From the sequence record OM982646: a stretch of 64,000 bases of DNA. One strand, given 5' to 3'. The translations under genes and the position numbers were made by a program. The notes under the pieces are model-generated. The model was not told where the DNA came from and did not search any database. It saw only the letters and a program-made list of their open reading frames with translations. The DNA is from Escherichia phage ST4. The number at the start of each line of letters is the position of its first letter. The stretch's first letter is position 1. Below, in pieces: positions 54,429 to 64,000 of this stretch.

Positions 54429-57400
54429 ATGTCAACATTTGACCGTCTGGCAGGTTTCGCAGACAGCATCACTAATGCTAAGCAAGTCGATGTCTCTACT
54501 GCAACCTCTCAGAAGCAAGCTGCACAAGGGCAAAGCCCTTTCCAATTAACCCCAGAGAATGCTTACAATCTCCAGACTGGACGAGTAGGTAATCTTGGAA
54601 TCGGTGCATTCGAACCAGGTTCACTTCAGGCAGATTTCACTCAAGCCTCCCCTTTAGAAATCATTAATAAGTATGGTAATGAGCAAGGTCTACAGATTAT
54701 TAATAGCCGAGCTAATGCTGCTGATGTTGTACGTCAGGACTTATCTAAGCAACGTACTAACGCAGAAGCATTTGGCGATACTCTTTCTGGTGTTGGTCTT
54801 GGTGTTGCTAATACCCTTGGGGGCATTGCTGCTCTTGGCACAGGTCTGGTCAATGATAATGCCGGGGCATCCATTGCTTCCGGTATGGATTGGTTGAATG
54901 AAGGTGTACACAATCTCCAGTCTGATGCACTGAATGCTACCCGTAAAGTTGTTCAGAATCAGAACCAGATTTCTGCTCAGAAGAACCAGAAACTCTATGA
55001 ACAAGACATCAAAAATGGGGAGAGCGATTTGGTTGCCTCCCTGTCTCGCATTGGTCGTGATGCTTTCGATTCTGTTGCTAATACACTTGATAATGGTATG
55101 GCTGCTTCCGACGGACTGAGTGAAGGTGTTGGTTCTCTCTTTACTGGTGGCCCACTTATTCGTGGTGTATCTGCACTAGGTAAAGTAATGGTTGGTGGTG
55201 ATAAAGCCGTTAAGGGTATTACCTTAGCTGCTGGATTAGGTTCACGTCCCGCACAGGTTGCATTGTCTGCTGGTCGTGTTGCTGCACCTGCTATTGCAAT
55301 CGGTGGTATGGAAGCTGGTGGTGCATACCAACAGACTGCTTCTGAAATCATGAAGATGTCCCATCAAGAACTGGCAAGTAAGTCTCCTGTTTATCAACAA
55401 CATATTGCTGATGGATTACCCCCTGATGAAGCACGTCGTCAGACTGCATCTGAAACAGGTATCATTGCTGCTGGCTTAACTGCTCCAGTTGCTGCTGCTA
55501 CCGGTCCACTGGTATCCAAGTTTGAACTTAATCCACTTAAGGTAGGTTCACTGGCTGGTGCTGGTTCCAATATGCTACGTGAGACTGTAGAGGAAGGTAT
55601 TCAATCCGGCTTCGGTCAGTTCGCACAGAACACTGCAATCAAAGAAAATGTTGATGCTACTCGTGACACTCTCAAGGGAGTCGGTGAGCAAGCAGGTCTG
55701 GGTGCACTTTACGGCTTTGGTAGTGCTGGGGTTGCTCAGGCTCCTGGTGCAACTGTTAAAGCAGTTGGTGCTTCTGCTGGTCCTGCTCTCCGTACTACCC
55801 TGGCTGGTGCTTCTCTGGTCGGTAAAACATTAGCAAAAGCTGCATCTCCTCTTACTAACATCCTGGTTCAACGTGGTGAAGAAGTTGCTAAGCGTAATGA
55901 ACAAGCATCCCCTGTAGCTGATGCTACGGTTAATGCTGCTGCACAGGAAGCTGCTGCTCAGGCAGAGCAAGCACAAGCAACTGTACAGGAAGCAGTAGAT
56001 GCAATGGATATCACTCCAGAAGAGAAGGCTGCTGCTACTCAGTATGCTGCTGACTTAACTCAGGCAATGAAGTTTGACCCAGTAGAATTGGAACAAGCTA
56101 ATCCAGCAATCCGTGAAGCTGTTTCTGGTTCCACTAACCGTGTAGAAGCTATTCAGAAGATGGCTGACCTGGTTAATACTGCCGAAGACCCTAACGTTCA
56201 AATGGAAGCAGCAATCCAGATGTATGACAATATCATGTCTATGGATAGCTTCATTAACCGTGACCCGGGTGCTCTGGCTAATCTTGAACAGGGTTCCCCT
56301 GCTGCTGCAATCGTAGACCAGTTCTCCGGCCTGATGGCTAACGTACAGAATACCCCTAAAGTACTTCGTGCATTCCGTGCCATCCATTCCATGATTCAGG
56401 AACAGGCTGAAGCAGGTAAACTGAAAGCTACTGAAGAAGCTAATCAAGCCCAAGCAAACAACATTGCTATGGCTGCTGATGTGTCTCCAGAAGTACTGGA
56501 TGCAGATTCAGTTAACATGGTTCTTAAACATGCAAGTGAAGGTAAGATTACACTGGGGAATCGTCAACGTGCTGCCCTGCAATCTGCTGCTGCCTTGTTA
56601 CAGGGTGCACGTGAGTTCGACGCTAAAGCAGAAGAACTGGGCTTACGTCCTCAAGACATTGTTAGTAAACAGATTAAAACCGACGAGTCTCGTTCTAATG
56701 AAGGACAGTACTCTGCGTTGCAACATGCGAAACGCATTCGTTCTGCGTATAACTCTGGTAACTTCGATTTGGCCTCCGCTTATCTGAGCGACTTTATGAA
56801 GTTCGCCCAGCACATGCAGAATAAGGTCGGAGCGTTGAATGAGCATCTGATTTCTGGGAATGCGGATAAGAATAAGTCTGTTCATTATCAGGCTCTCTCG
56901 CCCTCCCGTGAATGGGTACGTAGTCGTACTGGCCTCGGTGTCAATCCTTACGATACCAAGTCTGTTAAGTTTGCCCAGCAAGTAGCACTGGAGGCCAAAA
57001 CCGTAGCTGATATTGCTAACGCACTTGCTACGGCTTACCCGGAGCTTAATGTTTCTCATGTGAAAATTACCTCGTTGGATTCACGTCTGAACAAGCCAGC
57101 TGCCCAGGTAGTTAAAGAGTTCCGTCAAGGTGGTCTTGATGCCACTCAGTCTCAACAGACCAATGAACCAGTGAATCAGGTTGATAAAACTCCTGCACCA
57201 GTGCAAGAGGACACTACTACTGTACAGCCTAAAGCTAAACCAGTGGTAGAAAATAAGACTGCTCCTACTAAAGAGACTAGTCCAAAAACAGAAGAAGTCT
57301 CTACTACTAAGCCTGAAACAGTAGATGCTACCCTTACTAATAAGGATACCATCCAGGAAGTAGCCGAAACCAAAACAGAAATGGAAACAGTGTTCCCTGT

Positions 57401-64000: not shown

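Follow-up and report, generated by a model that had tools for sequence, protein, structure and literature searches.

Does the giant open reading frame (ORF) that begins at position 54429 of a 64,000-nucleotide (nt) stretch of the Escherichia phage ST4 genome (sequence record OM982646; the whole stretch is referred to here as the window) encode a virion RNA polymerase (vRNAP) of the kind known as gp50 in phage N4, and does such an enzyme account for the hairpin promoters found elsewhere in the window? An earlier sequence-only reading had proposed both. We estimate a probability of about 97% that 54429–64000 codes for residues 1–3,190 of an N4-gp50-type vRNAP of a G7C/PhAPEC7-like Gamaleyavirus (Schitoviridae) infecting E. 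coli. The evidence, all of it observed directly in ST4, comprises the sequence itself, its motifs, homology, synteny, and cognate promoters.

The Open Frame and Its Polymerase Motifs

Translation gives a single plus-strand frame from the ATG at 54429 to base 63998, i.e. 3,190 codons with 0 stops, in agreement with the uninterrupted frame of about 3,190 codons to the window end that had been claimed from sequence alone. The chance of a stop-free run of this length is ∼1e-80 on base composition (45% G+C), and the remaining two forward frames of the same region contain 168 and 409 stops, respectively. The closest in-frame stop 5′ of the ATG is at 54381–54383, and an AGGA is located 9 nt 5′ of the ATG. 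At its 3′ end the frame is cut by the window, with the stop codon lying beyond 64000.

The four polymerase motifs of the sequence-only reading (TxxGR, A, B, and C; Table 1) are all present where it had placed them, with the qualification that for two motifs it had quoted the codon of the catalytic residue, not the motif start. Its spacings are exact on recount: 111 residues separate D1523 from K1634, 8 separate K1634 from Y1642, and 273 separate Y1642 from D1915, as between N4 residues 559, 670, 678, and 951. The N4 numbering that it had given (D559, K670, Y678, and D951) agrees both with our alignment and with the literature, where R424, D559, K670, Y678, and D951 are listed as catalytic in N4 vRNAP, within motifs T/DxxGR, A, B, and C (PMC2784036, citing Kazmierczak et al. 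2002).

Homology to N4 gp50 and to the PhAPEC7 Enzyme

The window protein was aligned using MAFFT together with N4 gp50 (NC_008720, 34523–45025, minus strand; YP_950528.1) and with the vRNAP of PhAPEC7, the best nucleotide match (NC_024790; YP_009056186.1; 3,450 amino acids (aa)). Identity to N4 gp50 is 66.0% over N4 residues 1–3239, with 59% in the N-terminal domain (NTD), 71% in the polymerase (Pol) domain, and 67% in the C-terminal domain (CTD). R1388, D1523, K1634, Y1642, and D1915 align column-for-column with residues 1421, 1556, 1667, 1675, and 1948 of full-length N4 gp50, which correspond to R424, D559, K670, Y678, and D951 in mini-vRNAP numbering; the five catalytic residues are in register and the motif spacing is upheld in the pairwise alignment. 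The sole gaps relative to N4 are eight small deletions totaling ∼46 residues, the largest of which (17 + 6 residues) are at the linker/Pol junction. Searches of Protein Data Bank chains using phmmer returned E = 0 both for the N4 mini-vRNAP crystal structures (2PO4, 3C2P, and 3Q0A) and for the full-length, 3,500-residue N4 vRNAP chains (9PNR and 11GP), with window residues 1–3190 matching N4 1–3239.

Comparison with PhAPEC7 implies a closer relationship. The two vRNAPs are 97.9% identical at the aa level over 3,190 codons with zero gaps (95.3% at the nt level), and 84 phage records match the vRNAP gene. The N4-like identity proposed from the sequence alone is upheld in kind and corrected in degree, in that the protein is a near-identical ortholog (97.9% aa identity) of an annotated Gamaleyavirus vRNAP. 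Of the features that define N4 gp50 family members and can be tested from sequence, all are present in ST4 save for the total length (∼3,400–3,600 codons in the family) and the stop codon, which are cut off by the window end.

The GenBank labels of the orthologs in phi G17, PBM-2, PBM-3, UE-M6, and KKP 3715 would assign the protein to another enzyme class, or to none (“DNA polymerase,” “translation initiation factor 2,” “hypothetical protein”). We consider this reading extremely improbable given the E = 0 matches to experimentally characterized N4 vRNAP structures, the presence of four N4-vRNAP-specific Pfam domains, and the conservation of TxxGR and motifs A, B, and C including the residue equivalent to Y678; moreover, the DNA polymerase of the window is encoded elsewhere. 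The alignment to N4 gp50 refutes such an assignment, and the labels are annotation errors.

A practical by-product of the comparison is that several GenBank orthologs were found to be mislabeled: PBM-2, PBM-3, and UE-M6 carry the label “DNA polymerase,” phi G17 “translation initiation factor 2,” and KKP 3715 and IME11 “hypothetical protein.”

Domain Organization and the NTD-Pol Linker

The ST4 protein can be divided along its length as N4 gp50 is (Table 1). In its central third there are matches to the Pfam families N4_RNAP_helical (E = 1e-100), vRNAP_dom (6e-57), vRNAP_dom_2 (1e-56), and vRNAP_plug (2e-28), and all four (PF21624, PF21894, PF21769, and PF21867) score well over the gathering cut-off. 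PHROG 2206, “virion RNA polymerase,” spans all three thirds of the window protein, and a weak match to PHROG 414, “RNA polymerase” (E = 1.6e-5), covers the fingers/palm region. The 71% identity to the solved Pol domain of N4 implies that the ST4 Pol domain would adopt the T7-like single-subunit fold.

Scans of the NTD (codons 1–987) and CTD (2071–3190) against Pfam and NCBIfam gave nothing above threshold; the only matches were at chance level (TIGR01837, 16 bits versus a cut-off of 94.7; NF009689, 16 bits versus 200). In N4 encapsidation depends on the vRNAP CTD, which also autoinhibits the Pol domain, and the NTD is flexible, is not resolved by cryo-EM, and has been proposed to act as a membrane tether.

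The ST4 linker/Pol junction is ∼23 residues shorter than that of N4. The vRNAP of PhAPEC5 (3,571 aa; gene at 1501–12216 of the PhAPEC5 sequence analyzed) has ∼121 extra residues (KENTISQETLNKYGDRRESPWLFADG...) in the NTD-Pol linker, which are absent in ST4 and PhAPEC7; the insert site follows window codon ∼969–982 (nt ∼57335–57375). The length of the linker differs in ST4/PhAPEC7, N4, and PhAPEC5, and it is therefore a variable module among the orthologs.

Support for a Working Gene

The pattern of substitution relative to PhAPEC7 indicates purifying selection on the vRNAP gene. Of 451 nt differences, 362 are at the third codon position, and 360 of the differing codons are synonymous compared with 68 that are non-synonymous, an excess that is expected for a working gene under such selection. 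The composition of the protein is also characteristic: it has 0 cysteines in 3,190 residues, where ∼29 would be expected from the 0.9% cysteine content of the other large ORFs in the window. The vRNAPs of N4, PhAPEC7, and PhAPEC5 likewise contain 0 cysteines, and the absence of cysteine is a published vRNAP trait (PMC2784036).

Window codon 3190 aligns to residue 3190 of the 3,450-aa PhAPEC7 protein, and ∼260 codons therefore lie past the window end; orthologs range in length from 3,450 aa (PhAPEC7) through 3,500 aa (N4) to 3,571 aa (PhAPEC5). The position of the 3′ end and stop codon outside the window is the sole point in favor of a decaying or non-functional remnant, or of a sequencing or assembly chimera. 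A remnant or chimera is very hard to reconcile with 3,190 stop-free codons, a gapless alignment to PhAPEC7, a strong synonymous excess, a complete set of catalytic residues, and zero cysteine, and we regard it as having only a slight chance of being correct. A pseudogene or remnant was considered and is effectively refuted by the open frame, the gapless PhAPEC7 alignment, the synonymous excess, and the intact catalytic residues.

Hairpin Promoters for the Enzyme

N4 vRNAP recognizes a hairpin in the template strand whose GC-rich heptamer is centered at −11, and it reads −11A/G, −10G, −8G, and +1C specifically (PMC4496689). We scanned the window for hairpins with 3-nt loops; the early genes are on the minus strand and have the window plus strand as their template. 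Three hairpins were identified (Table 1), which parallel the N4 hairpins at 90–102, 557–573, and 4546–4562. The P1-like hairpin, from which transcription would run toward lower coordinates, has flanks in common with N4 P1 (ATGTCCATAA...GTGTAACGT), and the third hairpin is identical to N4 4546–4562, which lies upstream of gp15, a gene for an RNAPII subunit. The pattern CC-N7-GCGGAGC has 3 matches in the window versus 0.14 expected, and 3 were reached in 0 of 100 shuffles. The bases −13G, −12A, −11G, −10G, −9C, −8G, +1C, and +2C are present in 3/3 hairpins.

The relaxed heptamer GCG(A/G)AGC was used to seek a fourth early promoter, since early promoters P1–P4 of N4 are spoken of in a J Bacteriol 2026 paper; in the window it recovered the same three proper hairpins only, and a relaxed search of the N4 reference record likewise gave three proper hairpins only. 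Additional heptamer matches have 2–3 bp stems and no CC start.

On the protein side, the promoter-contact residues K114, R119, W129, K268, K849, K850, D901, and R904 (N4 mini-vRNAP numbering) are conserved in ST4. Together these observations support the proposal that the ST4 vRNAP and the hairpins are a matched enzyme/promoter set. The sequence-only reading had held that the gene explains the hairpin promoters, and three N4-type hairpins upstream of early genes, on the correct strand, bear this out.

No observation contradicts the identification as an N4-gp50-type vRNAP, and its limits are as follows. The stop codon, together with the final ∼260 codons, is outside the window, and the intactness of the whole gene would have to be judged from relatives. 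The NTD and CTD are without a curated family, and the roles that may be assigned to them rest on N4 genetics and on 2026 cryo-EM papers. Finally, K267 of the β-intercalating hairpin is Asn in ST4, as it also is in PhAPEC7.

The last point bears on whether the ST4 enzyme could be functional as a vRNAP and yet recognize its promoters or handle their hairpins otherwise than N4 vRNAP does. K267 and K268 of N4 melt the two bottom base pairs of a 7-bp stem, so that an Asn at the first position might alter this step, and stem lengths differ (7, 6, and 6 bp in ST4 versus 7, 7, and 5 in N4). However, the residues making base-specific contacts (K114, R119, W129, D901, and R904) are the same as in N4, as are the base determinants −11G, −10G, −9C, −8G, +1C, and +2C, and one of the three hairpins matches an N4 hairpin base for base. 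N4's own stems range from 5 to 7 bp, and non-conserved stem bases have been shown to be interchangeable (PMC4496689). A departure from the N4 mode of promoter use is therefore unlikely, and we favor an enzyme that would recognize its hairpins as N4 vRNAP does.

Gene Neighborhood and Genome Layout

The order gp53-gp52-gp51-gp50 is the same as in N4, with the vRNAP gene last in the late-strand block; a convergent gp49-like gene is expected past the window end. In PhAPEC7 the vRNAP gene is followed by a bidirectional terminator and a gp49-like (DUF2829) gene in convergent orientation. In N4, gp51 and gp52 are ejection proteins, gp51 forming a complex of the outer membrane and gp52 a periplasmic tunnel that together provide the vRNAP exit route (Nature Communications 2026); N4 gp52 is a 16.5-kDa virion protein. 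A terminator is annotated in PhAPEC7 and PhAPEC5 at the position of the ST4 terminator-like hairpin (Table 1). Its location between the gp51-like and vRNAP genes suggests that the 67-nt spacer holds a separate late promoter. No sigma-70 consensus promoter was detected in the 95-nt spacer upstream of the vRNAP gene, a scan that is uninformative because N4 late promoters are weak and activator-dependent.

Megablast of three parts of the window against a phage collection returned Gamaleyavirus genomes at 91%–95% nt identity, including G7C, PhAPEC7, PhAPEC5, Bas96, PGN829.1, and pSb-1. Window 1–25000 corresponds to PhAPEC7 3750–28198 reversed and contains genes of the early and middle classes (RNAPII subunits, rIIA/B, helicase, and DNA polymerase), and the window from 29124 onward corresponds to PhAPEC7 from its right end, 71778, downward, and contains late genes. 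These matches show the window to be a circularly permuted, reverse-complemented genome with its physical left end at ∼29.1 kb. The genome-end junction would lie at ∼29100–29130, with the P1-like hairpin ∼90 nt off, as in N4.

All three parts match Gamaleyavirus and the gene order is that of N4, in line with the claim of the earlier reading that the window as a whole is N4-like. This settles what the window is: with a Gamaleyavirus genome, the giant ORF, the three hairpin promoters, and the order of the genes are all explained. The remainder of the window is 92%–95% identical to PhAPEC7 over 66%–88% of the query. For the window as a whole, the closest genomes have 91%–95% identity and 66%–91% coverage, and coverage is lowest in 25001–50000, the tail/tailspike region. 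ST4 is probably a separate species within Gamaleyavirus, and its receptor-binding module probably differs from those of the nearest genomes.

An Insertion at the Start of the gp51-like Gene

Relative to PhAPEC7 and ∼50 other Gamaleyavirus records, ST4 carries an insertion of ∼600 nt (window 51782–52372), whose 5′ boundary falls 8 nt into the gp51-like gene, following ATGGCTC. The ORF within it (Table 1) has no Pfam or NCBIfam match, and its PHROG match is confined to the center of the profile (96–247 of 433). A counterpart at the same site is found in PGN829.1 only (67% aa identity), where it is annotated as an HNH endonuclease. The inserted ORF is probably a mobile gene of the homing type. 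The gp51 frame begins anew at the ATG at 52373, within the 3′ end of the inserted ORF, such that the protein begins MPITWRNV... in ST4 versus MAQITWRNV... in PhAPEC7; the insert appears to provide gp51 with a new ribosome-binding site and start codon.

We tentatively raise a joint proposal, which we think more apt to fail than to hold, that ST4 represents a distinct species-level Gamaleyavirus lineage, in which a rare mobile gene of HNH-endonuclease-like character has entered the ejection-protein/vRNAP block, and that the NTD-Pol linker is swappable among orthologs. If this were true, linker variation could affect the threading of the “beads-on-a-string” vRNAP through the tail channel.

Table 1. 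Coordinates of the vRNAP gene, its domains and motifs, the hairpin promoters, and the neighboring features in the ST4 window
Feature	Position	Strand	Details
vRNAP (N4 gp50 ortholog) coding sequence, 5′ part	54429..64000	+	3,190 codons; ∼260 codons outside the window by comparison with PhAPEC7 (3,450 aa)
NTD, codons 1–914 (N4 1–919)	54429..57170	+	59% identical over N4 1–997; no Pfam family
Linker 1, NTD-Pol, codons ∼915–987	57171..57389	+	Low-complexity, T/P/K/E-rich
Pol (mini-vRNAP) domain, codons 988–2071 (N4 1008–2104)	57390..60641	+	71% identical to N4
TxxGR motif (TRVGR), codons 1384–1388	58578..58592	+	R1388 = N4 R424
Plug insertion	58698..58943	+	N4-specific autoinhibitory module; Pfam PF21624, E = 1.7e-28
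Motif A (YVEADG), codons 1519–1524	58983..59000	+	D1523 = N4 D559
Motif B (RGIAKNPLTITIYG), codons 1630–1643	59316..59357	+	K1634 = N4 K670; Y1642 = N4 Y678
Motif C (FDGMN), codons 1914–1918	60168..60182	+	D1915 = N4 D951
CTD, partial, codons 2082–3190 (N4 2123–3239)	60672..63998	+	67% identical over N4 2104–3239
P1-like hairpin	29024..29038	+	ACATGC-GGA-GCATGT; +1 C at 29020; ∼90 nt from the inferred left end of the genome
P2-like hairpin	28186..28200	+	AGACGC-GGA-GCGTCT; +1 C at 28182
Third hairpin	24456..24472	+	AAGCTGC-GGA-GCAGCTT; +1 C at 24453
gp53-like gene	48650..51304	+	PHROG 2220; first of the gp53-gp52-gp51-gp50 block
gp52-like gene	51318..51761	+	
Inserted ORF, 183 aa	51841..52392	+	PHROG “HNH endonuclease” families, E = 4e-35
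gp51-like gene	52373..54334	+	Start rebuilt after the insertion
Terminator-like hairpin between gp51-like and vRNAP genes	54342..54361	+	AAAAGCCC-TACG-GGGCTTTT, then a T-run

Proposed Role in Infection

Virion presence, injection, and rifampicin-resistant early transcription have been shown for N4 only; packaging, ejection, autoinhibition, and catalytic activity would be expected of the ST4 vRNAP by analogy. By orthology with N4, the gene would be expressed late and its product encapsidated, in a few copies, by way of the CTD. At infection, the vRNAP may be ejected as a loosely joined chain of domains via the tail and a gp51/gp52-like channel, with the NTD contributing to membrane association or tethering and to genome entry. 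The plug, the motif B loop, and the CTD would keep the T7-like Pol domain inactive until gyrase-driven supercoiling and the host single-stranded DNA-binding protein expose a hairpin in the template strand close to the left genome end; binding to this hairpin would activate the domain. RNA would start with GTP at the CC located 11–12 nt from the loop center, and the hairpins at 29.03, 28.19, and 24.46 kb would drive the minus-strand early genes, including those for the RNAPII subunits. Transcription by the vRNAP may also help to draw the genome in.

Comparison with Known Systems

The ST4 vRNAP gene is of an already known kind, with a ∼98%-identical annotated ortholog and a family for which crystal and cryo-EM structures are available. 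The present analysis adds nothing to vRNAP biology: the enzyme, its motifs, its structure (crystal and 2026 full-length cryo-EM), and its promoters have already been described.

The closest relative is PhAPEC7, with which ST4 shares the upstream terminator, the 95-nt spacer to the gp51-like gene, and the start context. The two differ in 68 aa substitutions, which are evenly distributed along the window vRNAP, and in the ∼600-nt insert of ST4 at the gp52/gp51 junction, which PhAPEC7 does not have.

ST4 is similar to N4 with respect to the three-domain plan, which consists of an NTD, a linker, a T7-like Pol domain with plug and motif B loop, and a CTD. The catalytic residues are identical, there is no cysteine, and the gene neighbors and late-gene strand are the same, as are the hairpin promoters with their GCG(A/G)AGC core and CC start. 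In contrast to the 3,500 aa of the N4 protein, that of ST4 is predicted from its orthologs to be ∼3,450 aa, and Asn replaces K267.

More distantly, the ST4 Pol domain belongs with the RNA polymerases of T7 and mitochondria in the right-hand fold family, with which it has motifs T/DxxGR, A, B, and C in common. Unlike the T7-like single-subunit enzymes, vRNAP is ∼4 times larger, is packaged in the virion and injected, and is inactive on duplex DNA; its promoter is a hairpin instead of a duplex, and there is little similarity beyond the motifs.

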